IMG/VR virus record: IMGVR_UViG_2718217859_000007 | Length of the DNA: 45,044 nucleotides | Origin: a virus | Taxonomy: Duplodnaviria; Heunggongvirae; Uroviricota; Caudoviricetes | Reading direction: 5' to 3' (one strand) | Notes under the pieces: model-generated | What the model was told of the DNA's origin: nothing | The model's input: the letters and a program-made list of their open reading frames with translations, nothing else | Database searches by the model: none | Shown here: positions 1-14,405 of the stretch, piece after piece | How the letters are laid out: every line of letters begins with the position of its first letter | Position numbering within the stretch: position 1 is the stretch's first letter | Position numbers and translations under genes: made by a program

Positions 1-603
1 TTATCGAGCGTGATTGCCGCTAATCGCCATCTCTCTGATTGAGCGTAAATCATCCAGATTATTCAGTTGTTCCTTCATCTCGCGCTGGCGTTCGTGGATT
101 TTAAAGCCCTCCGTCACCATGGCCACCATCATGGCATCGTTCAGCGCAATAAGTTTCTCCCTGGTCAGTATGACATTGTTATTATCCGCATCAGTCCAGA
201 AAAACCCCTCCGGAAGCAGTCCGGCCTGCGCTGCTGCAACCACGGGGGCAAGGCGTGACTGCGAGGTTTTTCCGCCATCAAAACGACGGCCATCAAACGT
301 GAAAATAAACTCAACGTTTTCCTGACTGTCGCGCCATGCCTCAATTTCCCGCTTTTTGGCATCCTTTGCCGCGGCGATAAGTTCAGGCGTGACAGTGAAC
401 GGAGCGATTTCGCCCCATTTCCCGCTTTGCAGCTCCTGCCAGATGTGCTGGCCTGTCGGGGCCGTATCATCCTGTATGGCGGTATACAGGACAAACTCCG
501 TTTCACCTTCAAATAACACCTCGCAGTCAATCGCACCATTTTCAAGATAATGTGCGTTTCTGATGCCTTTCACCGCTCTGATTTTCATGTCTGATTTCCT
601 CAT
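1..603 (-). CDS. tfa: tail fiber assembly protein (lambda Tfa-like)
   Basis: Complete ORF ending at window base 1, immediately downstream of the Stf-like fiber gene; Tfa-like sequence; Met6 is an alternative start. Confidence 0.75.
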   Translation of the reverse strand: MRKSDMKIRAVKGIRNAHYLENGAIDCEVLFEGETEFVLYTAIQDDTAPTGQHIWQELQSGKWGEIAPFTVTPELIAAAKDAKKREIEAWRDSQENVEFIFTFDGRRFDGGKTSQSRLAPVVAAAQAGLLPEGFFWTDADNNNVILTREKLIALNDAMMVAMVTEGFKIHERQREMKEQLNNLDDLRSIREMAISGNHAR

Positions 604-2876
604 TACTCAATGCGTACAAAAAGACCGATAAAGCCACGCTGAGTACCATAATTGTTACCCAGGCCCGAAAGCGCCGTGTAACGACCGGGGAAGTTGTATT
701 CACCGGCACCGCCAATCACAACCTGCGGTGAGGATGCGTATGTCCCTGTATCACTAACCTGTGCACTCATGGCCAGAGGACCAAGACGGGAACCCGGCAC
801 AGTATCACCGAGTCCCAGAGACACATCTGCACCAAAACTCTCCCCCTGATATACCGCCATTATCGGCACACCGACGGCCGGGTATTTGTAATATGAGCCT
901 GACCCCGCCGTCCTGGACAACAAGTACGCCAGTGAGCTACCGTCATACACAATAAGGCTTGATGTTGCATTCCAGCTGTTACCACTGTAGCGATAACGCA
1001 TACAATGTATGCTGTGCTCATCCTCGTAATACTGGTTGTAGTACAGCAGCATTTTGAATTTACGCGCTGAGTCTGAACCATCGTTATCAGAGGGTGACCA
1101 CATCACATCAATGATACCGTTAAATTTCGTGGTGCCCACCAGCAGCGTGGAGGAGTCCGCAATACTGACCGCATAACGCCCCGGGGTGACTGTCTGCAGC
1201 CATATAACGAAATCAGCCTGTCCGTTAAATGACAGAGCTTCGGCGCTGGTGAATGCCTGTCCAAACCCATACATCCCGGACAGGGCCAGCCTGCCCGGTG
1301 TGCGGTCACGGATATCACTCTGGGGTTCCATCGTCGCAGCCGCGCTCAGCTCAAGCTCCGTGCGCATGGCTTCAGCCGTGTCATGCGCCAGTAATGCGCG
1401 GGCCTTCTCTGACAGCGGAGACAGTGAGGCATTCCCGTCTGTATTGAAGTACAGAAGATTATCTGCCCGTTGCGTCAGTGCGCTGATTGCCGTTAAGACG
1501 TCATTAAGCGGTTGTTTGCCTGCCAGCGCGTTTGTGATTGTCGTCGCAAAGTTCGGGTCATTGCCCAGCGCCGCTGCCAGCTCGTTCAGGGTGTCCAGAA
1601 CTTCCGGCGATGAGCCAACCAGCGCAGCAAGCAGTTTGCGCACAAACGCTGCGTTCGCTGCTTCCAGACCGGCGGCATCATCCGGTGGGGTTGGGGTGGT
1701 TGGGGTGCCGGTGAAGGCCGGGCTGTCCAGTGGCGCTTTTGTTTTCGTTTCGTCCATGACGGCTTTGACAGCCTTTGGCGTGGCAGCCAGTTCATCGCTG
1801 TCGTTGTCCGTATCACTACACAGTTGCACCAGACCTTTTTCTGTCGTGCTGGCATTTGTTGCATTCAGGTCATCAACTATCTGCTGCGCCTCATCCCTGT
1901 ACTGTTTCGCTTCCTGCGCATTGTCTGCACCTGCATCCTGGCTGTCTTTAGCCTGTCGGGCGTATTCGGCAGCGTTATTTTCATGCCCGAGTGCAGCATT
2001 TGCTGCATTTTCCGCGCTGGTTGCAGCTGATGATGCGGCATTATGATAAAGGCGGGCACGTTCGGCGGCATCGACTGATTCATCCCGCGATGTGCCTGAT
2101 GACTGTGCGCTGTTTTCTGCCTCACCCGCAAAACGTTCCGCATCATCACGGGCGGTGACCGTTGCCTCCACATCCTGCGCGGTCTGCTGTGCGCTTTGTG
2201 CTGCATTATCAGCGTGATTTTCCGCATTCTGTTCGCTTTGTGCGGCAGCTTCGGCACTGGCTTTTGCCTCGCCGGTCAGCGTTGCAGCATCAGCAAGTTT
2301 ATCGACCGCTTTCCGGACTATCGTGTCGGCATCCTTGACAGCCTGCTCTGCGCGGGCCGCATCCTGTGTGGCAGATGATGCCAGCAGCGCCACCTGATTT
2401 TTGTCTTCGGCAACGGCTTCTGCATTCTGCTGTACGTTATCCGCCAGCGTCTCGCAGTCTTCCTTTATCTTCTGCGCATCAGCGACATGTTGCCCGGCCT
2501 GTCGCTCGCTTTCCGCTGCTGCTTCCGCGCTCTGCTGCGCCTGCGCCACCATTTCCTCAAAGCGTTTCACTACATCCGGTTTTAAATCGCCTTCATCGAG
2601 GGCGGTCAGAAAGTCGTTCAGTGTGCCGGGCTTTGAGTCGTCGTAAACCGAAATATCACCGACGCAATATTCTCTTTCAATACACGAACGAAGATAAACA
2701 TCATATCTTCCGGTCTGGGCTTCAAATGCATATTCTCCTGCCGGCCCTGTCACCACTGTTGCCACCGTTCTCATGACCACTGCGGATGTATTTTGCCGGG
2801 CTTTCAGAATAATATGGTATCCGGACAAGGGGAGCCCCGCACCATCCGTCAGCACACCCGAAATTAATACAGACAT
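603..2876 (-). CDS. stf: side tail fiber protein (lambda Stf-like)
   Basis: 757 aa; N-terminus MSVLISGVLTDGAG..ILKARQNT and central block KGLVQLCSDT..ATPKAVKAVMDETKTKAPLDSPAFTGTPT..NELAAALGNDPNFATT resemble lambda Stf by recall; Ala/Gln/Ser-rich shaft; divergent C-terminal receptor region. Confidence 0.85.
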   Translation of the reverse strand: MSVLISGVLTDGAGLPLSGYHIILKARQNTSAVVMRTVATVVTGPAGEYAFEAQTGRYDVYLRSCIEREYCVGDISVYDDSKPGTLNDFLTALDEGDLKPDVVKRFEEMVAQAQQSAEAAAESERQAGQHVADAQKIKEDCETLADNVQQNAEAVAEDKNQVALLASSATQDAARAEQAVKDADTIVRKAVDKLADAATLTGEAKASAEAAAQSEQNAENHADNAAQSAQQTAQDVEATVTARDDAERFAGEAENSAQSSGTSRDESVDAAERARLYHNAASSAATSAENAANAALGHENNAAEYARQAKDSQDAGADNAQEAKQYRDEAQQIVDDLNATNASTTEKGLVQLCSDTDNDSDELAATPKAVKAVMDETKTKAPLDSPAFTGTPTTPTPPDDAAGLEAANAAFVRKLLAALVGSSPEVLDTLNELAAALGNDPNFATTITNALAGKQPLNDVLTAISALTQRADNLLYFNTDGNASLSPLSEKARALLAHDTAEAMRTELELSAAATMEPQSDIRDRTPGRLALSGMYGFGQAFTSAEALSFNGQADFVIWLQTVTPGRYAVSIADSSTLLVGTTKFNGIIDVMWSPSDNDGSDSARKFKMLLYYNQYYEDEHSIHCMRYRYSGNSWNATSSLIVYDGSSLAYLLSRTAGSGSYYKYPAVGVPIMAVYQGESFGADVSLGLGDTVPGSRLGPLAMSAQVSDTGTYASSPQVVIGGAGEYNFPGRYTALSGLGNNYGTQRGFIGLFVRIE

Positions 2877-2900
2877 TTTTAATTTCCTGATTTAAAAAAA

Positions 2901-3989
2901 TTAACCGTAATAATTGACACCTTTTTTATCCGCGTTCTTCTTCCCTGATGCCTGTCCTTTCGCGGAAATATCCGTGGTCAGCGACAGATTCAGCGAAAAT
3001 CCCTGCCCCGGTGCCAGTGAAAACTCCACCGATTCAGCCTGCCAGTAATGGTCCTCACGCACACCAAATCCCTGCGTGATAAAACGCACCTCCGCCCCCG
3101 CTTTCAGCAGTTCCGGTCTGCAGGGCAACGTTATCGTCATCTGGCGTCCGGCTTTCTGCACACGTTTAACCTTCGACTCTGCACAGTGTTTTGCGGTGCC
3201 CTGGTCAGGCTGGGTAAAGGGATGCCGCTTATCTGTTGACTCCACGTCAACTTTAACTTCACGTGTGCGTCCGTCACGGGCATCAAAATACCGGACACCC
3301 ACTTTCCCATCTTTCCCGCCACCCGCAGCGCCCTGTCGCTCACCTTCACGATAATCCCAGTCTGATACCATACCCGGCGTAATGGTTATCTCAGGGGCAT
3401 TTCTGCCCCCTGCACTCCGTGATGCCCCGTATTCCAGAAACAACCAGTAGCCACTGGTCGGTTTACTGGTGGCACCGTACATACCTGCAATGCGGGACAG
3501 GAGGGCTGCATCAGATTCTGATGACTGCATCACCCATGGGATATGAATACCAGCCAGCGCCGGTGATACCTGCGCCACCAGATTATTTTCAGTGGCGATG
3601 GTTTTTACCAGGTCTCCCAGCGAGATATCACTGAAAGCGCGGGTTTTCAGTGCGGTCACGTCCGCGCCATGTTTTGACGCATTCATGGGGGCTGCGGTGG
3701 CATAAATAGTGATCCGGCGGGGAGGGCCACCACTTGCCACCTGACAGACGGTAAAGCTGCCTTTATTTACCAGATTTCCGTTGAACCCCAGTCCCAGCGT
3801 TAGCACCGCGCCTTTCGGGGGCAACGCCAGCGTCTCACTGAACAGCGTTATCATCAGTTCATCGGACCGCTTTGTGCCAGCACCATTATCGGTATATCGC
3901 AGCTCAGCCAGACCTCGTTTTATTTCCTTCGTGATATCCTGACCTTCCGCTGTCAGACTGAAATCCGGCTGATACTCATTCACTCCCAT
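2901..3989 (-). CDS. tail protein, P2 gpD-like (late control D family)
   Basis: 362 aa ORF in the P2 gene-order position after U/X; family assignment by recall and synteny. Confidence 0.75.
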   Translation of the reverse strand: MGVNEYQPDFSLTAEGQDITKEIKRGLAELRYTDNGAGTKRSDELMITLFSETLALPPKGAVLTLGLGFNGNLVNKGSFTVCQVASGGPPRRITIYATAAPMNASKHGADVTALKTRAFSDISLGDLVKTIATENNLVAQVSPALAGIHIPWVMQSSESDAALLSRIAGMYGATSKPTSGYWLFLEYGASRSAGGRNAPEITITPGMVSDWDYREGERQGAAGGGKDGKVGVRYFDARDGRTREVKVDVESTDKRHPFTQPDQGTAKHCAESKVKRVQKAGRQMTITLPCRPELLKAGAEVRFITQGFGVREDHYWQAESVEFSLAPGQGFSLNLSLTTDISAKGQASGKKNADKKGVNYYG

Positions 3990-4198
3990 AACTGAAACGT
4001 CTCCTTCACTTCCGGTTCATATACCCAGTCCGGCAACACGATTTCCACTCCCGCCGGACAGACCGGACCAAGGTCAGCCAGCCCCGGATTAGCCTCCAGT
4101 ACCGCCGCCAGTGACTGGTTAAGCCCGGCACTGCCATAGTGCCTCTGACAGATGTCATCCAGCATATCGCCGTCAGTGGTCCGCCAGTTTTTCGCCAT
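3980..4198 (-). CDS. tail protein X (P2 gpX-like, LysM-type)
   Basis: 72 aa ORF between U-like and D-like genes, overlapping both; size and position typical of gpX. Confidence 0.65.
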   Translation of the reverse strand: MAKNWRTTDGDMLDDICQRHYGSAGLNQSLAAVLEANPGLADLGPVCPAGVEIVLPDWVYEPEVKETFQLWE

Positions 4199-4667
4199 AG
4201 TATTTCAGCTCCAGAGTGAACGTTTTATTCTTTGGCGCACCGCCGGGAAGAAAGGAGGTGGTGTTATCTGAATAGGCTGTTGCCACGAAATACCCCATCA
4301 CATCACCTGTGCCCGAGACCAGAAGATGCGGGGCCGGATTGTCATCCACCATCTGAACCAGTGTATCAAGGGCATCCATTCCCACACCGTCACGAAATCC
4401 CGCATGCACCATACCTTCAAAGGTTATCGTTCTGGCCCCCTTACCGGTATACTGCAGCAGGTCGTTTTTTCCGATAAGCTGTTGTTCATCCCACCGCCAT
4501 TCCATGGTGCGCTTCATGGCGTTATACGCTGCCGTATCGATACTGAATTCAAACTCACCAAACGACAGCATGACGCGGGAAGCCACCTCCGTTAATGAGC
4601 CCACTGCGTCCCATGCTTCGCGCTCAAGCCGGTTTACGCCCCAGCCCAGTAAATCCACCATCTTCAC
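4173..4667 (-). CDS. tail protein, P2 gpU-like
   Basis: 164 aa ORF directly downstream of the tape measure gene with 4-nt overlap; P2 order T-U-(X)-D. Confidence 0.7.
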   Translation of the reverse strand: MKMVDLLGWGVNRLEREAWDAVGSLTEVASRVMLSFGEFEFSIDTAAYNAMKRTMEWRWDEQQLIGKNDLLQYTGKGARTITFEGMVHAGFRDGVGMDALDTLVQMVDDNPAPHLLVSGTGDVMGYFVATAYSDNTTSFLPGGAPKNKTFTLELKYYGEKLADH

Positions 4668-6316
4668 CCCCAGGATTCATAACCATCAGTCATACGGGAA
4701 CGCTGGCCAAAATTAATATCCCCCAGATTTTTCATCACCCTGTCTGCAAGTTGTCCGGCATCCTCGCCAGGTTTCTGGGTAATGTTGAATTCCGCCCGTA
4801 TCTGATACGTGGGTTTTACTTCCACCTGGCTGATACTGCCGGGTGTATACTGGAGAGCTGAAAGGCGATCAGGATTTTCCTGTCCCTGACCAGCCGCAGG
4901 AAGTCCGTCAATGTAGGTGCGGGATTTCTCTTTTATCGCCTTAAAATCAGGTTCTTCCTTCGGTCCCAGCAAAGGGTCGAGAAATGCATCAAACTTTTTA
5001 TCGTCATGATTCCAGGGGAGATAACCGCGGGTGTCTTTATAGGCCTGTACAACCTGTTTTGTCAGGTCAGGATTTTGCCTGAGCAGTTCATCAAACCATT
5101 CACCCTGACCGTTTTTCTGCGCCACTACTCTCGCCAGCTCCGGCGACCCCATTTTTGCCAGATACTCCAGCACTTCCCGTCGGTCCTCTCGCGGATCATC
5201 CGCCAGCCCCCACTCAATGGCTTTTTGTGTAATTCCGGCAAGAACTTTTCCAAATTTCCACATCCAGGCAGCCAAGTCGATCAGCGCCGGCAGGGCATCA
5301 TCACGAATAAATGCCCGGATTTTTTCCAGTCCACCATTCTTAAACCAGGCCGCAAGGTCATCCGTCACCTGTTGAATATGTGGTGCCAGCTCCTTACCCA
5401 GTTGCCCGCTGATTTCATCAATGGACGAACTCAGAACATTACTGAGATTTGACAGCGCCATATGCCCCTGAACTGCGCCATCTGCCCCTGCCTTTGTCAC
5501 CAGGTTATAGCGTTTCTGCTCACTGATAAGCTTCCGGTAAGTTTTTCCTGACAGACGCATCCAGGTCAGAATTTTATTGGCCTCACCACCAAACAACGCA
5601 TCTGCCATCCCGGCTGCCACCTGTTCATTCTCTACCTGCAGTAAGCGATCAAATAAAAATTCGACCTGCTCCTGGTTACTTTTCCCTGCCATCACCCCGG
5701 ATTTCAGTCCCAGTTTGCCAAAGACCTCCTGAATGGCCCCTTTATCCGTGGCACCATTATCATCGTCAAAAACCTTGTTCCGGTACTCCTCAAACAGATC
5801 ACCGATGTTTTCACCGTTCAGCCCCATCAGTCGGGCCAGAGAATCCCACGCCGCATAGGTTTCATAATCCACTCCGTAACTGCGGGCGATCCCTGCCCGC
5901 TCCGCCGTTTCACTGTTCCGGCTAAGTGCTGCACCTGCAGCGCCTGCCAGTGTCAGTCCTGCCCCGACTGAAAGCCCGCCCCCCACTTTCAGGGCAGTCA
6001 TTCCACGCCCTTTCCAGCGAGCCAGACGTTCCGCACGCGCCAGTTCGCGGTTAAATCTGTCCTGCTCAGCGGTGGCATCATGGATTTTTTTACCCAGCTT
6101 TTCATACTGCTTTCGCAGATCGGTAATATCCTGTCCTGCCAGTACGCCAGCCTGGATTTTTCGTTTCAGTACGTCCTGCTGGCGTGTCAGACGAGCCACT
6201 TCACGCGTGGCTCCGGAAAGGCCCTTTTTCAGGCCATTAACAGAATTTTTCCACGACGGATCTATCGTGCCGCCGATCCGGATATTCGCTTTAAGGTTAT
6301 CGCCAACCGTTGCCAT
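4664..6316 (-). CDS. tail tape measure protein
   Basis: 550 aa, Ala/Gly-rich with predicted coiled regions, located after the E/E' chaperone pair and before U. Confidence 0.8.
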   Translation of the reverse strand: MATVGDNLKANIRIGGTIDPSWKNSVNGLKKGLSGATREVARLTRQQDVLKRKIQAGVLAGQDITDLRKQYEKLGKKIHDATAEQDRFNRELARAERLARWKGRGMTALKVGGGLSVGAGLTLAGAAGAALSRNSETAERAGIARSYGVDYETYAAWDSLARLMGLNGENIGDLFEEYRNKVFDDDNGATDKGAIQEVFGKLGLKSGVMAGKSNQEQVEFLFDRLLQVENEQVAAGMADALFGGEANKILTWMRLSGKTYRKLISEQKRYNLVTKAGADGAVQGHMALSNLSNVLSSSIDEISGQLGKELAPHIQQVTDDLAAWFKNGGLEKIRAFIRDDALPALIDLAAWMWKFGKVLAGITQKAIEWGLADDPREDRREVLEYLAKMGSPELARVVAQKNGQGEWFDELLRQNPDLTKQVVQAYKDTRGYLPWNHDDKKFDAFLDPLLGPKEEPDFKAIKEKSRTYIDGLPAAGQGQENPDRLSALQYTPGSISQVEVKPTYQIRAEFNITQKPGEDAGQLADRVMKNLGDINFGQRSRMTDGYESWG

Positions 6317-6433
6317 AACATCGCTTCCTCTCTTCCGACTCCGCCAGCATCATTGCCACAAAATCCGTATACGGCAGCGCCATCACATCTCCTGGAGACC
6401 ACCCGAACCAGACACCGGCACGCCGTATCGCCA

Positions 6434-6736
6434 TCAGGATGCTTTCTTCTTCCGCCGGACCGGCGGCAGCAAAAAAACATTAAACTGCCGCTCCAGGGCC
6501 AGGTAATCACACGCTTCCATGTTCATCATGTCCGCCGCGTCCATCCCGCACAGACCGGCAATCATATCCAGATCAGCCTCTGCTTCCGGTTTGTTACTCC
6601 GACGATGCAACAGACGATCGCGGACAGTGGGCGCACGCATGGTGACGTGCGTGATCGTCTGTCCTGATGCGGTGACATACGGCACGGATAACACAATTTC
6701 CACGCTGCTGGCAGGAACACTGTTTTTTTCTGACAT
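6434..6736 (-). CDS. tail assembly chaperone (P2 gpE-like); E' made by -1 frameshift extending to ~6297
   Basis: 100 aa ORF between tube and tape measure genes; slippery T TTT TTG near its 3' end opens a -1 frame of ~58 codons ending at 6297-6299. Confidence 0.7.
   Translation of the reverse strand: MSEKNSVPASSVEIVLSVPYVTASGQTITHVTMRAPTVRDRLLHRRSNKPEAEADLDMIAGLCGMDAADMMNMEACDYLALERQFNVFLLPPVRRKKKAS
6470..6476 (-). other. programmed -1 ribosomal frameshift slippery heptamer (TTTTTTG) for E/E'
   Basis: Minus-strand GTT TTT TTG in the 0 frame of the E ORF; same heptamer and position as the P2 E/E' frameshift site. Confidence 0.6.
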
Positions 6737-6795
6737 AAGTACCTACTTAAAAAAAGAAAAGGCGGCCTGAGCCGCCTGAATGACAGGATCCCGGA

Positions 6796-7314
6796 TTAAA
6801 CCCGGATGATTTTTTTCAGATCCGCCAGAACATTAACGCCATTAATACGACGTACAAACTCCTCCGGAATAATGCAGATGGTTTCCACACCGTCGACAGC
6901 CTGGCGGTAATAACTCAGCGACATTTCCACCGTCACCGAGGCGTCTGCCTGCGATGTTGCCGGACGTGCATCCGGCGTGATACTGGTGATCATCCCCTGC
7001 AGGGTTTCCACCTGTCCGCTGGTCGCATTCCCCACCTGATAGCCCTGGCGGACAACAATCTCCGGCGAATAAAGCCCGGCCTGTAATCCCAGCAGCGTCA
7101 GCATGGCAACATCATAACCATAAATCTTAAACGAACAGGTCAGTGCTTCCATGCCGTCATCCACTGCCACCGGTGCATCCATTGCGCCGGTTTTGATATC
7201 CACTGTCGTGATATTAATGGCAGGCGGTGTGTATTCATGCGCCCCCTGAAGGCGGATCCCGCCAGGAAGAAATAACGCCCATGCGCGCAACAGTTTTTTT
7301 TCACCCGTCATCAT
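6796..7314 (-). CDS. tail tube protein (P2 FII-like)
   Basis: 172 aa ORF immediately downstream of the sheath gene with 4-nt overlap; myovirus tube size and position. Confidence 0.8.
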   Translation of the reverse strand: MMTGEKKLLRAWALFLPGGIRLQGAHEYTPPAINITTVDIKTGAMDAPVAVDDGMEALTCSFKIYGYDVAMLTLLGLQAGLYSPEIVVRQGYQVGNATSGQVETLQGMITSITPDARPATSQADASVTVEMSLSYYRQAVDGVETICIIPEEFVRRINGVNVLADLKKIIRV

Positions 7315-8786
7315 ACTGTCAGTTCCTCCAGCGCCAGTTTATTGTTAATCATTGCCCGCAGTGTCAGGCGCTCCAGTGGTGACTTCGGCCCAAAGTCATA
7401 ATCAATATACAACTGCCCTGCCGCCAGGGTTTCTGCAGTGTTCAGTTCATCGTTCAGCCATGCACTGCCACCGTGGATCGCGCCCAGATTTTTAAGCTGA
7501 CGCATATAGGCATTAATGCTGCCAAGAATGTCGTCTGCCACATCCCGATCAAGCGGGCGATCGACATAAGGCAGCATGGCCTCCTGGATGCTGTCCTCAA
7601 TCACATCTGCAGTGCGGCGTACCGGCTCAAAACGCCACTGACTGTGGGATGTGCACAGACGGTTACCCCAGTGTTTAAAACCGTCATGGCGAATAATGGT
7701 GGAGATATTTTCCATGTTCAGCAGGTTTGCCGTGCAGTTCTGCTCCCCGAGAATAAACGTATCCACCTGCTCCAGACCGGTGATATTCATCACGTCCTGG
7801 TTTGATTTGGACCACCACCACCCTTTTTCGTAATCAATACGGGCACGCAGCCCGGCAGCACGGGCCGAATATGGACGAAATATCGTCTGCCCGCTGTCAT
7901 CCGTCACTGACACGCGCGGACGCAGCAGCTCCACACGCCCACCAAATGACGCGCGCCGCTGAACCACATCCTGCGGCGTTGCCATTGAAGGCGAGTCAAT
8001 ATAGGCCACAGCCCGCAGCTTCGCGGCATACGTTTCCAGCGCCTTTGCCACACCATCATCCTCACTGTACCCCGTGGCAATGAGGATGCGCGGTTGATAG
8101 CCTGTCACGCCCTTACTTTCTGTCAGCGCCTCCATGGCCTGAATCACCGCCGCACGCTGTTCGGCCTCTTTCGCCTTTGTTTTACTTTCTGCGCGCACCA
8201 CAATCACCAGCGCACCAGTCTGGTCAAAAATATCTCGCAGGGCCGGGTATAATGTTCCGGCTGTGCCCAGTTTCCCTGCCTGAGTAATGGCCCCTGCCAC
8301 CACCACCGGTGTATTGACCGGGAACGCCTCATCTTCTCCGCCGGATAACGTCAGGCTGAACGGCAACACCACTTTATTTTCAGCGCCTCCTGCATTCAGG
8401 GTGCTGACAGCCGCCGTCACAGGCGAATCCCCCAGCGCATTCACCGCTTCAGTCACACAGTCCACCGTGGCGTTAACCTGGCTGTGTTCGTCCGTCCCCA
8501 GCGTTATCGTCAGGGTTATACCTTCCAGCGTGGCCGTAGTCTGCGCACTTTGTTCTGTGGCAGCGACGGCAACCACGGAAATATTATTGCCAGCCCTGCC
8601 TTCCTGTTTCGCCGTGAAATCCAGTGCCGTTCCCAGCAGCCACGAGCCGGCAGTGCCGGAAGCACACACGCCACCAGAGGCGTCCGGCGCAGTCCCCACC
8701 AGGCCAATCACTGCCGTGGAGATGGTCTGCACGGCAACCGTACCCGTCGTCAGTTCAATGGTTTCAACACCATGTAATCCGGACAT
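7311..8786 (-). CDS. contractile tail sheath protein (P2 FI-like)
   Basis: 491 aa ORF, typical sheath size, upstream of the tube gene. Confidence 0.85.
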   Translation of the reverse strand: MSGLHGVETIELTTGTVAVQTISTAVIGLVGTAPDASGGVCASGTAGSWLLGTALDFTAKQEGRAGNNISVVAVAATEQSAQTTATLEGITLTITLGTDEHSQVNATVDCVTEAVNALGDSPVTAAVSTLNAGGAENKVVLPFSLTLSGGEDEAFPVNTPVVVAGAITQAGKLGTAGTLYPALRDIFDQTGALVIVVRAESKTKAKEAEQRAAVIQAMEALTESKGVTGYQPRILIATGYSEDDGVAKALETYAAKLRAVAYIDSPSMATPQDVVQRRASFGGRVELLRPRVSVTDDSGQTIFRPYSARAAGLRARIDYEKGWWWSKSNQDVMNITGLEQVDTFILGEQNCTANLLNMENISTIIRHDGFKHWGNRLCTSHSQWRFEPVRRTADVIEDSIQEAMLPYVDRPLDRDVADDILGSINAYMRQLKNLGAIHGGSAWLNDELNTAETLAAGQLYIDYDFGPKSPLERLTLRAMINNKLALEELTV

Positions 8787-8798
8787 ACATTTCTCCCA

Positions 8799-8821
8799 TA
8801 AAAAAACCGCCCTCAGGCGGT
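8799..8821 (-). terminator. rho-independent terminator between tail fiber genes and sheath operon
   Basis: Minus strand ACCGCC-TGAG-GGCGGT hairpin followed by TTTTTTT. Confidence 0.6.
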
Positions 8822-8840
8822 CAGATGATTCATTTCTTTT

Positions 8841-9368
8841 TCAGGTATTTTGTGGCTGCTCAGGCCAGCCAATATTGTCGTAAGCAGTCTTGTCTGCAAT
8901 TGTACTGAAATCCATCGCCTGCAGCGATTTCGCGTAAATACGCCAGACTTTCAGTTTTTCTTTTTCTTCATCACTGAGAATGCCCAGCGCCAGGTCGGTA
9001 GCCCAACCGGATGTGATATCCTGTGCCGTCATCAGCAGACGCTGACGTTCTGCCTCTGCTTTGGCCACATAATCCACTGGCACAGGCAGCACTTCGCCGT
9101 CCTGGTAATACCATCCACCATCAATATTCACACCATCAGGAAGTACATCCAGTTCGGTAACACTTGCATTAAGTGGACAGAGCGCAGAAACATCGGTTGT
9201 AATGCTGCGGACAATGTTATTACTGTCATACATGATTTTGTATGTATTCGTCGCAAACTGTTTCTGGCATTCGTACCAGTCCTGACCATCCTCACTGATG
9301 AGATATAACGCCCACGCTACTGGTGGATTTTCCGGTGTGTATTCTCTGAAGTTTTTAATGTTTATCAT
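8841..9368 (-). CDS. tail fiber assembly protein (P2 gpG-like)
   Basis: Follows the H-like fiber gene; start placed at MINIKNF (ATG at 9368), which avoids overlap with H; ~176 aa as for P2 G. Confidence 0.7.
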   Translation of the reverse strand: MINIKNFREYTPENPPVAWALYLISEDGQDWYECQKQFATNTYKIMYDSNNIVRSITTDVSALCPLNASVTELDVLPDGVNIDGGWYYQDGEVLPVPVDYVAKAEAERQRLLMTAQDITSGWATDLALGILSDEEKEKLKVWRIYAKSLQAMDFSTIADKTAYDNIGWPEQPQNT

Positions 9369-9394
9369 GGTGTTTACCGTTCTTTTACGCGAAT

Positions 9395-10654
9395 TCATAT
9401 CGACGATACATTCATCCAGGTACCATTCACACAATACTGAATGGTCCGGTAATAAATACCACCAATGTTATCTGCAGAATTGTCGCCAGTATCCTGAACG
9501 ATTATCCCGGTCATGACGTTTCCGCTACCAAGGTCCTGCGTCCAGGTATACCAGTTACCTGCGGGGGAGTAGCTTTGTCTTGACCCCAGCCTTACAGAAG
9601 TGATACTGGCCCCTGTTTTTGCGTAACGTGCATCGAAGTTTCCGTAGTCTGACGGTGTCACCCGCCCTGAAACATTCACTGCCCGGTTACTTTGTAACTC
9701 GCCATTCTGAAAACGGAATACGTGCTGACCATTGGCATAAACATCCAGCAGGCCGTCACCATTCTGTTTAAAGCCAGTATCACTGTCACCAATTGCAATT
9801 GAGTTACCCCCCAGCGCATTCTGAACACCGATACCCAGCGCACCATTCACCTGAGAGCCACCGCCAACAGACACTTTGTGCGACATGGATATCTCCCCCG
9901 TCCGCAAGTCAATACTGAACGGGCGCAATGAGCCAATATCACCATTTTCACCCTGACCTTCACTGGTAGGAATAAGGTGCAGGCACTCTTCCGAACGGCG
10001 AAAAATCAGACCAAAGGCTTCGTTGAAAATCCTCAGCGCATTAACACCACGGATTTTCAGTTCCCCGCTCATGGTGTCACCATCACGCTGAACGGCATTT
10101 TTTGCCTTATCCACCGTGGGTTTTAATCCGAGGTTTTCAACAGACTCATCCTTGTCTTCCACATCCGAAAGATTATTTTTTCGTTGCAGATAGCGTCTGT
10201 CTCCGATTTCCTGAGTAATAATGGCTCTGTCCGGATCAACCTCCAGCACCACGCTTTGCGCGTGCGTCAGTCCAAGAACCAGCGTCAGAATAACTTCCTT
10301 AATAACGGAATCCGTCTGGTCTGGTAAAAAGGTGTCCGGATAACGTCCGTACGCGATAAGCGTACCTCTGTCGCTGATCATCCCCAGTTCACGAAGGGTT
10401 TTACCGGGGTATGATTTACAGTCAATCACAATATCCCCGCTGATGAAGCCCTCCTCCACCGCACCGTCGGAAAAGGGTTCCTGCCCGAATTCGCCGTACA
10501 ATGATGTCATTGCTGCCATTTCATCCGGCGTGGATGGCAATGCCTGCCCGCCCCCGTCACCAAGCAGAACATGCCGGACGGTCACGGTTTGCCCGTTCTG
10601 ATATGCTGCTTCAATTTCTGCTGCGCCGGACGTTGTCAGAATCAGTCCATTCAT
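9395..10654 (-). CDS. tail fiber protein (P2 gpH-like)
   Basis: 419 aa; motifs AVQRDGDTMSGELKI, NALGGNSIAIGDSDTGFKQNGDGLLDVYANGQHVFRFQNG, GNFDARY, YCVNGTWMNV resemble P2 H by recall. Confidence 0.85.
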   Translation of the reverse strand: MNGLILTTSGAAEIEAAYQNGQTVTVRHVLLGDGGGQALPSTPDEMAAMTSLYGEFGQEPFSDGAVEEGFISGDIVIDCKSYPGKTLRELGMISDRGTLIAYGRYPDTFLPDQTDSVIKEVILTLVLGLTHAQSVVLEVDPDRAIITQEIGDRRYLQRKNNLSDVEDKDESVENLGLKPTVDKAKNAVQRDGDTMSGELKIRGVNALRIFNEAFGLIFRRSEECLHLIPTSEGQGENGDIGSLRPFSIDLRTGEISMSHKVSVGGGSQVNGALGIGVQNALGGNSIAIGDSDTGFKQNGDGLLDVYANGQHVFRFQNGELQSNRAVNVSGRVTPSDYGNFDARYAKTGASITSVRLGSRQSYSPAGNWYTWTQDLGSGNVMTGIIVQDTGDNSADNIGGIYYRTIQYCVNGTWMNVSSI

Positions 10655-11241
10655 ACTCCTGCCTCACTCTGCCCTTCAGTGGGCACTGTCTTTGTTATCA
10701 CACCGGTACTTCTGATTTTTTCTGTCGCCATCACATAGCCGTAACCAAATCCCCGCCCTGTGCTGTTCCCGTAGACGTGAATACTGAACCAGCTGCGCAG
10801 ATTTTTGGCACGGAGTACCGCATGCTTCAGATCCTGATGATCATTCATCAGTACCGGTAAATCCTTCTGCTCCACGTTCAGACGAAAGGTATACGGCTCC
10901 CCGGGTGGGGTCTGCTCATACCACTCAACAATCTGCGACCGGAAGGGACTGTCAGCCAGCGATGCCATCAGCGCCGCTTTAGTCCCTCTGTGGCGGTGGA
11001 TGTAAGCAGCACGTTTTATCGCAGACCGTTTTTCCGCCTCCGTCCAGTGTTCATTCCAGGTGTCCACCGCCATTTCCCAGGCCAGCCATGGCAGCAATTC
11101 AGCAGGACATAAATCGGGATTTTTCACATAGCGGATCAGGCAGACCGCTATATCTGACAGCATATCTCCGGCGACACAGTCCACCACCCGCTCCGCCCGG
11201 CTGGCACTGACCGGCAGTATGCTCCTGATATCGTCATTCAT
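10651..11241 (-). CDS. baseplate protein (P2 gpI-like)
   Basis: 196 aa ORF between J-like and H-like genes with 4-nt overlap. Confidence 0.7.
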   Translation of the reverse strand: MNDDIRSILPVSASRAERVVDCVAGDMLSDIAVCLIRYVKNPDLCPAELLPWLAWEMAVDTWNEHWTEAEKRSAIKRAAYIHRHRGTKAALMASLADSPFRSQIVEWYEQTPPGEPYTFRLNVEQKDLPVLMNDHQDLKHAVLRAKNLRSWFSIHVYGNSTGRGFGYGYVMATEKIRSTGVITKTVPTEGQSEAGV

Positions 11242-12148
11242 CAGTTGTCTCCACCTTATTCAGCGTTACCTTACGGCACCACGGTGCCTGCCCCATCGCA
11301 GGAACGATATCACTGCCCGGAGAGGTCAGATTCACAGTAATCACCCCGGTCTGGTGAAGGGCACCATCCATGCCAGAACGGGATGCCACCGAGCCAATCC
11401 GGTGGACGCTGTCAGTGTATGACTGCAGCGCCTTGCGGGCATTTGCCATAACCAGTTCACCATCCAGTCCGTAGGGAATATGAATATCCGCCACCACATC
11501 GTAGGGAATAATTTCTGCCGTCCGGACACTGACAAAATCCGTCAGGGGACGGGTTTCATCATCACTGACTGATGCTGCCACCTTATCCAGCAGGGGTTGT
11601 GATGCGCTGCCATTTCCTGACCGGGATAAAACATAAAGAAAAACGCGGCCTTCCTGTGAATGTGTTTCCGGCCCGTAAGCCTTCACATCCAGCACATCAG
11701 GATCAGCACTTTGTGCAAAATAGTGATACGCATTTTTCGCGCCGGCGGTGCTGAGCCGTGCCCACGACAACTGGATACGTTCGCGAAAAGCGTCATCATC
11801 TTCATACACCGCCGGCGTGGGCGGAATGGTGCTGTCGTCTGCCGGGGTAATGACCAGCCGCTGAACCTGATAATTCGCACCAACCTGATCCAGATCGCTC
11901 CCACCGGCACTGGCAAGCAGTACAGCACGGACAGCATCATTTATCTGCTGGCGCATCAGCGCCACCCGAAAAGCCAGCGCCTCTGCCCATTTATACGCGG
12001 GATCAGATTCCACCAGAGCCGAAAACAACGTATCCAGTTCCTGATACTTCGCCACTATCTGAGTGACCAGCATTGCGGTATCCGGCACTTCCACCGCATC
12101 CGGTACCGGTATCGCGGACAGATCAATGATTGCCTGAGACGTTGCCAA
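11234..12148 (-). CDS. baseplate protein J-like
   Basis: 304 aa ORF in conserved V-W-J-I-H order. Confidence 0.75.
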   Translation of the reverse strand: MATSQAIIDLSAIPVPDAVEVPDTAMLVTQIVAKYQELDTLFSALVESDPAYKWAEALAFRVALMRQQINDAVRAVLLASAGGSDLDQVGANYQVQRLVITPADDSTIPPTPAVYEDDDAFRERIQLSWARLSTAGAKNAYHYFAQSADPDVLDVKAYGPETHSQEGRVFLYVLSRSGNGSASQPLLDKVAASVSDDETRPLTDFVSVRTAEIIPYDVVADIHIPYGLDGELVMANARKALQSYTDSVHRIGSVASRSGMDGALHQTGVITVNLTSPGSDIVPAMGQAPWCRKVTLNKVETTDE

Positions 12149-12479
12149 TTTTTATCTCCTCGAGTCGAATCGTATCCTGAGTTTCGTTGTTCACCCCGAC
12201 AAGCGTCAGCCACGCGCTTCCTTCTCCTGTCCACGTCACTTCCACCCGCCGGAGAGTCAGGCGGGGTTCCCAGCGTTCAAGGGCGGTTACCGTTTCACGC
12301 ACAATTCTCACCCGCGTGAAATCATCCTGTGGGTTATCAAGCAGACTGAAAAGTCTGCTGCCGTATTCCCTGAGCAGGACCCGGCTGCCGACCGGTGTTG
12401 ACAAAATATCGGTGACGGACTGGCGCAGATGTTCGTTACCGTGCAGATATCTGCCGGTGGCTGAATCAATACCAATCAT
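12123..12479 (-). CDS. baseplate wedge protein (P2 gpW / gp25-like)
   Basis: 118 aa ORF between V-like and J-like genes. Confidence 0.7.
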   Translation of the reverse strand: MIGIDSATGRYLHGNEHLRQSVTDILSTPVGSRVLLREYGSRLFSLLDNPQDDFTRVRIVRETVTALERWEPRLTLRRVEVTWTGEGSAWLTLVGVNNETQDTIRLEEIKIGNVSGNH

Positions 12480-12512
12480 GTTGTTTATTCCGGAAAAAGA
12501 ACTGAAAGGAGA

Positions 12513-13136
12513 TTACATTTGCTGACCAGGCTGTCCGGTGCTGCCACCACTGTCGCCCCGGTGATTGTGACCGTTATAGACAATTCTGATTTGACTCATC
12601 GTTCCGTGATAATCAGAAACCTCACCACCGACCATCAGATCCGCCTTAACCACCGCCTCAGCATTCATGATTGCTTTACCCTGTACGGTCAGGGTATCTG
12701 TGATTTCTACCGGACCGTCCAGGGTTCCCCTGCCTGTAATTTTATAGCTGCCGCCTTCAGCCAGCGTGATGGACAGGGCATTAGCCTGACGGTCGTAACG
12801 GATTTCCGTTCCGGTATCAAACAAAATAACATGTTCGTATTCACTGCCCTCAGGGACAGGAATGGCGTCAATATTGGCCCCCGGATACACCCGACCATTA
12901 CGCAAATCGCCCGCCTCCGATATCACTGTAACGGCATCGCCGGGGGCCGGATAATTACTGACCTGCATGTAGCGCCCGGACTGTACCTGAATCCAGGGCA
13001 AAGGCGGCGAAAGCACATCCCCGATATCCACCCGGACCATCACCGGGCTGCCCGGGATCACATCCTCCACCACACCACGCCGGACCATATCCGCCACCCT
13101 GCGGCGTAACTCTGCCACTTCATCTGCCAGACTCAT
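12513..13136 (-). CDS. baseplate spike/assembly protein (P2 gpV-like)
   Basis: Start set at MSLADEVAELRRR (ATG at 13136), not the ORF-track extension to 13430, which overlaps the upstream gene and has no support. Confidence 0.7.
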   Translation of the reverse strand: MSLADEVAELRRRVADMVRRGVVEDVIPGSPVMVRVDIGDVLSPPLPWIQVQSGRYMQVSNYPAPGDAVTVISEAGDLRNGRVYPGANIDAIPVPEGSEYEHVILFDTGTEIRYDRQANALSITLAEGGSYKITGRGTLDGPVEITDTLTVQGKAIMNAEAVVKADLMVGGEVSDYHGTMSQIRIVYNGHNHRGDSGGSTGQPGQQM

Positions 13137-13686
13137 CACCGGTGCCCTCCGATTTCCAGATAAGACGATAATCCTGCTCATGTCTCTTGCCGGTTTCCGG
13201 TACTTTCCCCAGCCAGACTTCCTGTAATGGCGCACCAGCCGGAACATCGAACGGATCTTCCCCGACCGGAATATCCTGTTCAAAAGAAACGCGGAAAACG
13301 ATGTAGTCATCCAGCAGGCGGTCGAAGGTATCCACTTCAGCATCAATAAAAATGGCCGGGTCAACGTTATCCAGCCCGAACGTGGCTCCCTCAATCCAGT
13401 CGGACAAATCCATCGCCAGACAACGGGCAAATATCTGCGGTTTTGGCACGTTCTCCGTCTTCCCGGCCCGGTCTGTCACCACAAACAGATCGCATTTCAG
13501 CGTGACCCGTGTCTGCCCGTCGGCAAACCGGGCCTTGTCCCAGCCGGGCACATCAACAAACACGGCAGGCGTCACCAGTTGCGTCTCTTTTTCCGGGTAC
13601 TCATCGGCATCTTCCACCCAGGGAATTTGTTTCAGACTGTCAATAACCGCCTGATGCCAGGCGCCCATCATTAATGGCTCCATCAC
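13120..13686 (-). CDS. putative tail completion / virion morphogenesis protein
   Basis: 188 aa ORF between head-completion genes and gpV, in the P2 R/S position; function inferred from position only. Confidence 0.4.
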   Translation of the reverse strand: MMEPLMMGAWHQAVIDSLKQIPWVEDADEYPEKETQLVTPAVFVDVPGWDKARFADGQTRVTLKCDLFVVTDRAGKTENVPKPQIFARCLAMDLSDWIEGATFGLDNVDPAIFIDAEVDTFDRLLDDYIVFRVSFEQDIPVGEDPFDVPAGAPLQEVWLGKVPETGKRHEQDYRLIWKSEGTGDESGR

Positions 13687-14405
13687 TCCAGCCCCTTAAA
13701 TACCCGGAATTTCAGTTCATGCTCAAAATTTTTCAGGATCAGTGCTTCCGCATCCGGAAAAACAAAATCCTCTATACGGTTCAGCATGGCTTCGTAAATA
13801 TCGATTTCCGCTTCACGCACCCTTCGTCGTCCTGATACCTGACGGACCAGGACAGTCTTACGCCGTGAAATACGTCCGCGCCGGTTTTCAGACTCAAATT
13901 CATTAATGAAGGCCTCATCACCTGACCAGGTGGTGACCGGTATTGCCTCACCGGCAGGTTTAAAACGGATCTCCCTCGCCTTCCTGCTGCGTGAAGCTGG
14001 AGCAAAACGTCCCCGCACATCACGCAACTGATGGCGTTCGCCGCGTCGTCCACCACTGATGCGTCCGCGCAGATCGCGTACTTTGATGGCGTTCAGGCCG
14101 AACCATACCTTTGCCTCGTCAAACTCATCGCCGTTTCTACGAATGACAAAATCACGCAGCACACGCCTTCCGATCATTTTCTGACTGCGTGGGGCAACCT
14201 GTTTTTTAAACTCTGCCATGGCCTTCATCCGCAGTGCGGACGCGGCTCTTTTCAGCGCCACGCCCCAGGCTTTACGGATCTGGCTTTTTGAACCACCCAG
14301 TTTAGCGATAATTTTCAGCACCTCATCTTCATCAATATCGACGACGAGGTTTCGTGCCAGCCGTCGCTGCCGGGCACTGCTTCGTTCATGCTCTCTGACT
14401 GCCAT
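13683..14405 (-). CDS. putative tail completion / head-tail adaptor protein
   Basis: 240 aa Arg-rich ORF between FII-like and tail genes; position only. Confidence 0.4.
   Translation of the reverse strand: MAVREHERSSARQRRLARNLVVDIDEDEVLKIIAKLGGSKSQIRKAWGVALKRAASALRMKAMAEFKKQVAPRSQKMIGRRVLRDFVIRRNGDEFDEAKVWFGLNAIKVRDLRGRISGGRRGERHQLRDVRGRFAPASRSRKAREIRFKPAGEAIPVTTWSGDEAFINEFESENRRGRISRRKTVLVRQVSGRRRVREAEIDIYEAMLNRIEDFVFPDAEALILKNFEHELKFRVFKGLE

Follow-up and report, generated by a model that had tools for sequence, protein, structure and literature searches.

The window analysed here, a 45,044-nucleotide stretch from a virus of the Caudoviricetes (IMG/VR record IMGVR_UViG_2718217859_000007), is a whole lambdoid-regulated prophage of E. 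coli, in which a lambda-type head and a gpFII connector are joined with a contractile tail whose genes follow the P2 order, V W J I H G FI FII E T U X D. The whole order, with X between U and D, matches the P2 plan, and presumably the R-pyocin plan as well. Two intact fibre systems are encoded on the minus strand, with all four fibre and chaperone ORFs co-directional and lying where a first-pass annotation of the sequence had placed them. The features considered are the following:

1..588, minus strand: DUF4376 protein, 195 aa, putative chaperone or transient cap for fibre 2 (PF14301, E=5e-19)
603..2876, minus strand: fibre 2, 757 aa, Stf-like, with a complete PF08400 domain; the last structural gene
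606..1364, minus strand: putative receptor-binding region of fibre 2, residues ~505-757 (homologues on other fibres)
1377..1850, minus strand: distal shaft of fibre 2, residues 343-500, generic fibre motifs (PF03406 and a lambda block)
1857..2594, minus strand: proximal shaft of fibre 2, residues ~95-340, Ala/Glu/Gln-rich and, judging by composition, helical (coiled-coil type)
2598..2876, minus strand: collar (virion-attachment) domain of fibre 2, residues 1-93, a six-stranded beta-sandwich plus helix (PF08400)
2607..2652, minus strand: codon ~75/76 recombination junction, running into the PGTLNDFL motif at residues 83-90 (identity breakpoint)
2901..3989, minus strand: gpD-like baseplate hub/late control protein (weak PF05954 match)
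8805..8822, minus strand: terminator-like hairpin separating the chaperone and sheath genes (consensus scan only)
8841..9368, minus strand: fibre 1 chaperone, 175 aa, Caudo_TAP/P2 gpG/lambda Tfa family (PF02413, E=1e-27)
9395..10654, minus strand: fibre 1, 419 aa, P2 gpH-type N-terminal baseplate anchor and Mu-S-like distal part
10651..12148, minus strand: gpI-like and gpJ-like baseplate wedge proteins (PF09684 Tail_P2_I, E=2e-35; PF04865 Baseplate_J, E=2e-22)

Architecture of the two fibre systems

The fibre 1 gene, directly downstream of the gpI and gpJ genes, encodes a P2-H-type PF12571 domain at residues 4-148 (E=2e-14), and its product shares 26% identity over 218 aa with the N-terminus of a P2-like gpH (E=8e-14). 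The C-terminal part matches the Mu tail fibre S (5yvq, E=5e-14) and also 9cuy, a 'short tail fiber', with residues 159-419 being 74-76% identical to phiP27 L54 and Rac-SA53 tail1. The accompanying Caudo_TAP protein matches phrog_136, 'tail fiber assembly protein' (E=5e-58), and is 42-46% identical to phiP27 L55, pPE4 gp68, and Rac-SA53 tail2. Its mechanically called ORF spans 8841-9434, starting at TTG 9434; the true start is most likely ATG 9368, located past the fibre 1 stop codon, since homologues align from residue 23, a relative is annotated in this way, and the sequence is consistent with such a start. The first-pass assignment of a P2 H-like fibre with a G-like chaperone inside the tail operon is thereby upheld, and the hairpin at 8805..8822 is predicted to mark an operon boundary, comparable to the P2 P_V/P_F units. 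By analogy with P2 and R-pyocin biology, the gpI/gpJ wedge is the expected docking partner: fibre 1 would be the canonical baseplate fibre, plugged into the wedge by its gpH-type N-terminus, with its Mu-S-like tip folded by the Caudo_TAP chaperone, and would probably trigger sheath contraction.

The second system lies directly after gpD, the last canonical tail gene, which in a relative with an identical gpD is annotated as 'phage late control protein'. Between the TAA stop codon of gpD and the fibre 2 ATG lie 24 nt with an AGGAAA ribosome-binding site, and no terminator-like site was found between the two genes by a consensus scan. The fibre 2 stop codon either overlaps the DUF4376 ORF, which extends mechanically to 603 (TAATG), or is separated by 14 nt from ATG 588, the likely start, which has a GAGG ribosome-binding site. 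With its short gap and ribosome-binding site after gpD, no terminator-like site, and an overlapping or abutting stop, fibre 2 is closely tied into the tail operon.

Both fibres possess a complete N-terminal attachment domain, and the two anchors are of different types (PF12571 versus PF08400), confirming that two distinct fibre-plus-chaperone systems are present and that neither fibre is a truncated remnant. Residues 1-134 of fibre 2 cover 134/134 positions of the PF08400 profile (E=5e-55), and residues 1-136 are 43% identical to lambda Stf. A helix was predicted at residues 100-127 of the AF2 model, beyond which the shaft is probably helical as well; the proximal shaft is the equivalent of the proximal coiled coil in Ur-lambda Stf (PMC12617516) and has a counterpart in the ~100-residue coiled coil of XM1 gp40 (PMC10457771). 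The distal shaft includes a PF03406 Phage_fiber_2 repeat at residues 343-382 (E=1e-14), a match of residues 391-472 to the Bxb1 'tail collar fibers gp4' chain 9d93, and a block at residues 447-500 with 44% identity over 54 aa to residues 1-54 of lambda orf-314, the sole non-N-terminal block in common with lambda Stf. Thus, the resemblance to lambda Stf previously claimed for both the N-terminus and the shaft stands for the former but was overstated for the latter, and is essentially confined to the ~93-aa collar and this one 54-aa block.

The C-terminal ~250 aa are divergent, as the earlier reading had it: no similarity to lambda Stf was found, and this part is also unrelated to T4 gp37. Pfam and PDB matches to the receptor end were not found, and the structure prediction proposed for it yielded an AF2 model with a pLDDT of 56.7 and no fold match. 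Homologues with 59-76% identity over residues 440-757 include fibres with H-type PF12571 N-termini, one of which belongs to an HP1-like prophage and has a DUF4376 gene behind it. Its occurrence on H-type fibres with a DUF4376 gene next suggests that the receptor end is a working module.

The protein encoded after fibre 2, at 1-603, had been taken for a Tfa chaperone. It is instead a DUF4376 protein that matches phrog_1141 (E=3e-83) and is 51-55% identical to its counterparts in phiP27, pPE4, and Rac-SA53; similarity to lambda Tfa, or to the Caudo_TAP protein of the same window, was not found. DUF4376 proteins have been experimentally demonstrated to be required as fibre chaperones in Alteromonas V22 and Campylobacter CJIE1 (PMC10579305, PMC7882524), and the protein encoded here may fold, and possibly transiently cap, the receptor-binding domain of fibre 2.

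Conservation and mosaicism of the collar domain

Phmmer searches with the collar domain hit 9e7m, the StfN chain of Ur-lambda (E=5e-17), and 7kjk, the collar spike of XM1 (E=2e-7), and the best two PDB folds for its AF2 model (pLDDT 80.9) were likewise 9e7m (TMt 0.83) and 7kjk, the XM1 neck collar spike (Foldseek E=6e-7), with Bxb1 tail-tip collar fibres among the weaker matches. Sequence identity is 46-47% to lambda StfN and 24-26% to the XM1 domain. The PGTLNDFL motif is invariant across all aligned collar domains, which fall into two clearly separate clades, one from contractile tails and one from siphoviruses: collars in contractile contexts are mutually 65-99% identical and share 36-48% identity with collars downstream of lambda-type J/lom.

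Comparison of the window with three other members of its tail lineage gave a collar dN/dS of 0.03-0.06 at dS of 0.19-0.33. Identity within the lineage is 97-99% for the sheath, 28-98% for the fibre 2 receptor end, 68-84% for fibre 1, and 46-99% for the fibre 1 chaperone, with the collar almost invariant. Codons 1-75 retain 91-98% nucleotide identity within the lineage, whereas their identity to the phiP27/pPE4/Rac-SA53 group is 47-82%. The break is sharp: starting with codon 76, identity to this group rises to 80-98%, and ~87-98% identity to pPE4 and Rac-SA53 is kept up to codon 210. The collar core is thus lineage-specific and under strong purifying selection, while sequence past codon ~75 has been exchanged between phage lineages. 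In this the collar domain behaves like a working adaptor: the core stays with the tail lineage, and the shaft, receptor end, and chaperone are swapped horizontally at the conserved PGTLNDFL junction.

The linkage of this pair to the tail is also conserved. This gpD was found in 73 E. coli genomes, 67 of which also contain the gpD-Stf junction, and the arrangement was observed at two different integration sites, ompW and ssrA. Among lineage members, fibre 2 ranges from 490 to 854 aa, the DUF4376 gene is always next, and all ORFs are intact. This conservation bears on the proposal that the Stf-like and DUF4376 genes act outside their own virion, as a remnant, a moron, or a trans supply for co-resident lambdoid siphophages. 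Consistent with that proposal, the pair consists of the last prophage genes beside the attachment site, a typical moron position; decayed prophages of Shigella and E. coli hold truncated copies; and a Stf-type fibre is absent from the closest cultured sheath relatives, Hafnia phage yong2 and Citrobacter phage Chris1, which shows that this tail type works without one. However, the intact ORFs, the coupling to gpD with no terminator, the recurrence of the junction at two integration sites, and the low collar dN/dS all make it quite improbable, as does the tail-lineage-specific collar core, whose low identity to siphophage collars suggests that it would be poorly suited to lambda-type tails.

Probable display of the two fibre sets on the particle

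The favoured reading, which we regard as probable, is that both fibre sets are produced at the same time and occupy different sites on the particle, with fibre 1 at the baseplate and fibre 2 as an accessory. The ~93-residue collar would oligomerise to form a ring encircling some cylindrical portion of the particle, from which the coiled coil would project outward to the receptor-binding domain. The site at which a lambda-type collar is mounted on a sheathed tail needs explaining. Docking at the neck, where XM1 gp40 carries its homologous N-terminal domain, is favoured because the sheath covers the tube, such that the lambda docking site at the junction of the tube and the distal tail protein would not be exposed.

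Placement of the collar near the tail tip, as in lambda side fibres, would allow fibre 2 to reach the cell surface before contraction and is a possible, if less probable, arrangement. The collar is closer to lambda StfN than to the XM1 neck domain, Bxb1 tail-tip collar fibres are among its weaker fold matches, and the neck would be awkward for first contact, given a tail of ~90 nm (as estimated from the 550-aa tape measure protein) and a fibre estimated from its 757 aa to be shorter. In a P2-type tail, however, the bare junction gripped by the lambda collar is buried by sheath and wedges; to encircle the baseplate or sheath, a ring would presumably take far more than 12 copies and have to withstand contraction, and such a ring is absent from all solved contractile tails.

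An unlikely third arrangement is a branched fibre, with the fibre 2 collar docked on fibre 1 or its bound chaperone to form a composite adhesin like that of DT57C/G7C. The two fibres and their chaperones are the only proteins common to this prophage, phiP27, and Rac-SA53-type phages, and the C-terminal part of fibre 1 belongs to one family in all of them (46-76% identity). Moreover, the collars of phiP27 and Rac-SA53-type phages are 96-99% identical on otherwise unrelated tails, with no other tail or neck proteins detected in common; this argues against a tightly co-adapted docking partner and so counts against the favoured reading. In contrast, both solved homologues form rings on the tail or neck axis rather than on another fibre; the collar core is lineage-specific, while the C-terminal part of fibre 1 is shared with phiP27 and Rac-SA53; within the lineage, the collar hardly changes, in contrast to fibre 1 and its chaperone; and the two gene pairs are 6 kb apart here.

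The first-pass annotation had also raised a switch of host range. In such a switch, the fibre sets would be expressed one at a time, as with the invertible G/C segments of Mu, P1, and P2-like phages. An invertase and inverted alternative fibre ends are indeed present in relatives, namely Citrobacter phage Chris1 and a P2-like phage, but neither an invertase gene, among the ORFs examined, nor flanking inverted repeats of >23 nt were found in positions 1-11000 of the window, and both fibre genes are on the same strand, with their own start codons and distinct N-terminal anchors. A switch is therefore very improbable. With both sets displayed on one particle, as preferred here, fibre 2 would add or speed reversible adsorption to a second receptor without replacing fibre 1; broader or faster adsorption is a reasonable expectation based on Ur-lambda and Gifsy-1 (PMC12617516, PMC12312913).

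Comparison with known fibre systems

Fibre 1 shares its anchor family, its position after gpJ and gpI, and its chaperone family with P2 gpH/gpG and R-type pyocins, but its distal part is Mu-S-like rather than P2-H-like, and P2 and the R-pyocins lack a second, Stf-type fibre. Like fibre 2, Ur-lambda Stf has a homologous PF08400 collar (43-47% identity, TM 0.83 to 9e7m) followed by a long helical shaft, keeps PGTLNDFL and the one 54-aa distal block, and is encoded by the last late-operon gene before the chaperone. The lambda collar, a 12-mer encoded downstream of J and lom, surrounds the tube/gpM junction, which is exposed on a noncontractile tail, and the tip is T4 gp37-like, binds OmpC, and needs the Caudo_TAP protein Tfa (PMC12617516). 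Fibre 2, in contrast, belongs to a sheathed tail and has an unrelated tip and a DUF4376 partner. The chaperones of Alteromonas V22/A5 and Campylobacter CJIE1 likewise have a C-terminal PF14301 domain and are encoded directly after the fibre gene; only the domain is in common, as close sequence similarity is absent and the cognate fibres differ.

Among the contractile-tail phages with solved structures, XM1 alone has a homologous N-terminal domain, followed in gp40 by a trimeric coiled coil. This collar spike docks at the neck of the Vibrio myophage (PMC10457771), demonstrating that a myophage can use a collar domain of this kind to carry a further fibre or spike besides the baseplate fibres. 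Its distal part is a tailspike and not a fibre with a separate chaperone; homologues of its partners gp4 and gp5 were not detected here, and the neck proteins of the prophage have no detectable similarity to those of XM1. The neck reading derives from this one solved myophage, and the collar is nearer to lambda than to XM1.

The two-set arrangement is real and ordinary in kind, being already known from several families of temperate E. coli phages. Sets of a fibre, a TAP protein, a Stf-type fibre, and a DUF4376 protein occur in phiP27, pPE4, Rac-SA53, a Yersinia prophage, and others. An identical four-gene design, in the order fibre, Caudo_TAP chaperone, PF08400 fibre, and DUF4376 protein, is found in phiP27 (L54-L57), Rac-SA53 (tail1-tail4), and 'Actinobacillus' phage vB_Apl-pPE4 (gp67-gp70), all temperate contractile-tail phages that, as here, carry the set at the attachment-site end; their collars are 74-77% identical to the present one, and identity reaches 76% in the C-terminal part of fibre 1. 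Further tail or neck proteins in common with the prophage were not detected, and its collar core forms a distinct sub-clade. Their four genes stand side by side behind a Mu-order baseplate, whereas here the first pair occupies the P2 position, between gpI and the sheath gene, and the second follows gpD; a recurrent design thus gains a new member.

Prophage Architecture and the Two Fiber Systems

The 45-kb window comprises a complete prophage with lambdoid regulation, including an integrase, replication genes of the lambda-P/DnaT type, a lysis cassette, two tRNA genes, and the gene for a Q antiterminator. Its long minus-strand late operon encodes a lambda-type terminase, portal, S49 protease, decoration, capsid, and FI proteins and a gpFII homolog, followed by contractile-tail genes in P2 order (V, W, J, I, H, G, sheath, tube, E, tape measure, U, X, D). 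Near-identical prophages occupy ompW in bovine and crow isolates of E. coli, with 97.9-99.3% identity across the first 12 kb. The features under discussion are:

1-588/603, minus strand: DUF4376 protein, presumed partner of fiber 2
603-2876, minus strand: fiber 2, Stf-like, 757 aa
2901-3989, minus strand: gpD
8841-9368, minus strand: Caudo_TAP chaperone of fiber 1
9395-10654, minus strand: fiber 1, 419 aa
43914-45044: integrase

Between the lysis and terminase genes lies a plus-strand, low-GC (~0.40) ORF (23458-24075) with a weak PF00300 histidine-phosphatase match; it is a moron-like insertion, the late region being otherwise minus-strand. Genes for tRNA-Gly(tcc) and tRNA-Thr(tgt) (27170-27323, minus strand) are located downstream of the gene for the Q antiterminator (28936-29757), in the position of tRNAs and toxin genes in Stx phages. 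A relative from E. coli OkiPb01676 (L004), whose tail is 97.9% identical, has Ile/Arg/Arg tRNAs instead in the same slot and, downstream of Q and the tRNAs, subtilase-family AB5 toxin genes (L004 20326-22253; two B subunits and an S8 peptidase). The matching slot of the window (~25200-27170) holds a TerB-like ORF (25648-26001) and a 180-aa ORF without assigned function (26285-26827).

The first-pass annotation had proposed a P2 H-like fiber with a G-like chaperone at 8841-10654, and both assignments hold. Fiber 1 starts with a gpH-type anchor (PF12571, residues 4-148, E=2e-14), its chaperone is a Caudo_TAP protein (start most likely ATG 9368, not TTG 9434), and the domain order PF04865, PF09684, PF12571, PF02413, and then sheath domains corresponds to J-I-H-G-sheath. 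Its first 218 residues align with a P2-like gpH at 26% identity, with no alignment to it past residue ~214, and the distal part matches the Mu fiber S and a 'short tail fiber'. Judging from anchor family and gene position, fiber 1 would be the baseplate fiber.

The PF08400 collar domain of fiber 2 is complete (134/134 profile positions, E=5e-55), and residues 1-136 share 43% identity with lambda Stf, bearing out the N-terminal half of the earlier proposal that its N-terminal and shaft blocks match Stf. The shaft half did not survive: beyond the N-terminus, only residues 447-500 (54 aa) align, with lambda orf-314. The receptor end was said to be divergent, and indeed the last ~250 residues have no alignment to lambda Stf. 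Both attachment domains being present, neither fiber is a truncated remnant lacking its N-terminus. By sequence, the collar matches the StfN chain of PDB 9e7m (E=5e-17), and residues 1-198 match gp40, the collar spike of the Vibrio myophage XM1 (phmmer, E=2e-7). The AF2 model of residues 1-130 (pLDDT 80.9) has six strands and one helix, and the same two structures are its two best PDB folds in Foldseek: Ur-lambda StfN 9e7m (E=1e-7, TMt 0.83) and the XM1 collar spike (E=6e-7, TM about 0.6). A helix is predicted at residues 100-127, and the sequence is Ala/Glu/Gln-rich up to approximately residue 340, making this stretch a candidate for a trimeric coiled-coil proximal shaft like that of lambda Stf. 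For residues 440-757, the AF2 model, built on a 26-sequence alignment, reached a pLDDT of 56.7, and Foldseek returned nothing below E=8e-3 in the PDB. Many receptor-end homologs (e.g., P0013, P0024, and P0028) are named 'shikimate transporter, partial' at NCBI, evidently a propagated misannotation.

Linkage and Selection of Fiber 2 and its Partner

The fiber 2 ATG lies 24 nt past the gpD stop, with a ribosome-binding site and no terminator-like hairpin between the two genes. Elsewhere in the tail operon, such hairpins occur 3′ of the tube gene (6760-6777, minus strand) and 3′ of the fiber 1 chaperone gene (8805-8822, minus strand), and they may be attenuators that tune how much sheath and tube is made relative to the products of later genes. 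The window's gpD gene was found in 73 complete E. coli genomes, 67 of which have the gpD-Stf junction. Lineage members at ompW and ssrA share the same layout with all ORFs intact; their fiber 2 is 490, 667, 757, or 854 aa long, always with the DUF4376 gene next, while sheath identity is 97-99% and gpD identity 89-100%. Tip diversity on an otherwise conserved machine is what working receptor-binding proteins usually show, and fiber 2 is likely one of them. Over codons 1-95, comparison of the window with three other lineage members gave dN of 0.009-0.019 and dS of 0.19-0.33 (dN/dS of 0.03-0.06). At the sequence level, both fiber systems look functional. The finding of two fiber systems is real, each being of a known kind and their combination already present in sequenced phages and dozens of E. 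coli genomes.

The protein at 1-603, previously taken for a lambda Tfa, proved to be something else: it lacks a PF02413 match, BLAST aligns it with neither lambda Tfa nor the TAP protein of the window, and its C-terminal half (residues 78-183) is a PF14301 (DUF4376) domain (E=5e-19). In the window, its gene is separated from the fiber stop by a 14-nt gap or joined to it by a TAATG overlap, and in every relative examined it is directly 3′ of the fiber gene. Within the lineage, the partner is 56-100% identical and the receptor end 28-98%, the two values not running strictly parallel. A PDB sequence search with the DUF4376 protein returned no match, and the sole functional name among 1629 homolog matches was one 'phage tail assembly protein'. 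Experimental support for a role of DUF4376 proteins as fiber chaperones or caps comes from phages of Alteromonas and Campylobacter, a requirement for fiber folding or activity having been demonstrated for V22 and CJIE1 only (PMC10579305, PMC7882524). The family phrog_11571 matches two window proteins, the Caudo_TAP chaperone in its N-terminal half and the DUF4376 protein in its C-terminal half; thus, chimeric chaperones of the two families exist.

The collar is itself a mosaic. In binned comparisons, codons 1-75 show 91-98% nucleotide identity within the lineage versus 47-82% to the group of contractile-tail phages phiP27, pPE4, and Rac-SA53, whereas from codon 76 identity to that group rises to 80-98% (~87-98% versus pPE4 and Rac-SA53 up to codon 210). 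The junction leads into PGTLNDFL, a motif invariant in all aligned collar domains, including that of lambda. By this mosaic, the beta-sandwich core is bound to its tail lineage, and what is exchanged between lineages is the shaft, the tip, and the chaperone; the collar domain behaves as a lineage-bound adaptor.

Homologs retrieved with the 100-aa collar were all short, partial proteins of at least 58% identity, leaving the siphovirus clade unsampled; a genome-contig survey was therefore used, combining phage records and E. coli prophages with a scan of one genome per species. Contractile-tail context was defined by baseplate-J or DUF2612 upstream, TAP immediately upstream, and DUF4376 downstream. 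Collars in this context share 65-99% mutual identity, whereas they are 36-48% identical to a second group located downstream of lambda-type J/lom with a lambda-type Tfa next. Identity to the XM1 neck domain is 26-27% for the contractile-tail clade versus 18-19% for the lambda clade. Siphovirus cases (such as K-12 Rac) among the close collar relatives were considered and rejected, as the 'DH5alpha'/KO11FL match is a Rac-SA53-type contractile-tail prophage. In addition, low-coverage contigs of ~48.4 kb in assemblies of unrelated taxa, among them Neobacillus, Kitasatospora, Leeuwenhoekiella, Shewanella, and Pseudomonas (L024-L038 and other short loci), encode J, lom, and Tfa 100% identical to those of phage lambda and are almost certainly lambda control-DNA contamination.

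Proposed Mounting and Joint Deployment of the Fibers

Two precedents bear on where fiber 2 is attached. Passages of the Ur-lambda study describe twelve StfN domains ringing the tube/gpM junction, and four trimeric side fibers that speed adsorption via OmpC (PMC12617516); in passages on the myophage XM1, the neck carries eighteen collar copies, bound to the rings of head-completion and tail-terminator protein (PMC10457771). The passages searched of these two papers (PMC12617516, PMC10457771) draw no link between StfN and the XM1 spike. Because a sheath buries the lambda site, the neck is the favored docking position, and fiber 2 would be mounted there. Among the window's neck proteins, one is a gpFII homolog (E=1e-7 to PDB 1k0h); the other two neck/tail-completion proteins, searched for XM1-like docking partners, had no significant PDB match (PA0615 pyocin collar, E=0.26). 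The gpFII-like protein is encoded at 14386-14793, a Neck1-like protein at 13683-14405, and a 188-aa protein at 13120-13686. A branched arrangement, with the fiber 2 collar seated on fiber 1, is kept alive by the near-identical collar domains found on phiP27-type and Rac-SA53-type tails, and its probability is judged low. Extending neck mounting to other temperate enterobacterial myophages, it is possible, if somewhat doubtful, that in at least three unrelated tail lineages the contractile-tail Stf-collar clade mounts a second long-fiber set at the neck as XM1-like adhesin whiskers, in each case coupled to a receptor domain capped by a DUF4376 protein, with the collar core as the only lineage-bound part and PGTLNDFL as a universal siphovirus/myophage splice point.

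Dual fibers had also been suggested to switch host range. An invertible fiber switch of the Mu G, P1 C, or P2-like kind was rejected, given that window positions 1-11000 contain no inverted repeats >23 nt and the ORFs scanned include no invertase. Therefore, the two fibers are expected to be produced at the same time, in keeping with extra or quicker adsorption and not with a switch.

Relatives, Implications, and Comparison with Known Systems

Judged by sheath identity (60-62%), the nearest cultured relatives are Hafnia phage yong2 and Citrobacter phage Chris1. In both, the W-J-I-H-G block follows D, whereas in the window lineage it precedes the sheath gene (window 2901-13430); a whole block has thus been rearranged inside a single tail family. 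Neither phage has an Stf-type fiber, Chris1 having an invertase in its place; fiber 2 was therefore acquired by the E. coli lineage and kept. An HP1-like E. coli prophage (L010, 7743-12246) has a variant of the two-fiber design, with two tandem fibers that both carry PF12571 gpH-type anchors; the first has a Caudo_TAP chaperone, and the second a DUF4376 gene and a receptor end of the type seen in the window. These two fibers would compete for the same baseplate sites. In Shigella flexneri (L018, 10001-13845), a truncated Stf-type fiber (304 aa) and a DUF4376 gene lie beside an IpaH-type NEL E3-ligase effector gene and IS elements, indicating that ipaH islands are flanked by decayed contractile-tail prophage ends.

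The host range of temperate E. coli phages determines the spread of prophage-borne toxin genes, examples being Stx2e in phiP27 and the subtilase-like toxin in the ~98%-identical relative of the window prophage; Rac-SA53 reportedly carries LT-II. With a second, independently anchored fiber set, such phages would gain an additional receptor and a specificity cassette that can be swapped on its own. In engineering terms, the data mark PGTLNDFL, following the ~75-residue lineage-specific core, as a natural splice point at which receptor ends could be swapped between siphovirus and myophage scaffolds or tailocins. Of more specialist interest are the mounting of a lambda-type collar on a contractile tail and the clean modular junction past the collar core. 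Literature searches on PF08400 and on phiP27 particle morphology turned up nothing about a second fiber in these phages.

Compared with P2 gpH/gpG, fiber 1 is alike in its PF12571 anchor and gene order but unlike in its receptor part. Lambda Stf is encoded downstream of J/lom in a siphovirus operon and has a T4 gp37-like tip with a Caudo_TAP Tfa, whereas fiber 2 follows gpD in a sheath/tube/baseplate operon in which no J or lom gene of that kind occurs, its tip is not alignable, and its partner is a DUF4376 protein. With XM1 gp40, fiber 2 shares a homologous Ig-like domain at the N-terminus; a coiled coil comes next in gp40, and a putative one in fiber 2. The window's four proteins are likewise encoded by phiP27 (L54-L57), Rac-SA53 (tail1-tail4), and pPE4 (gp67-gp70). 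Beyond fibers and chaperones, nothing detectable is common to the window and these phages, or to phiP27 and Rac-SA53, and the tails of all three phages are Mu-order, unlike the P2 order of the window.
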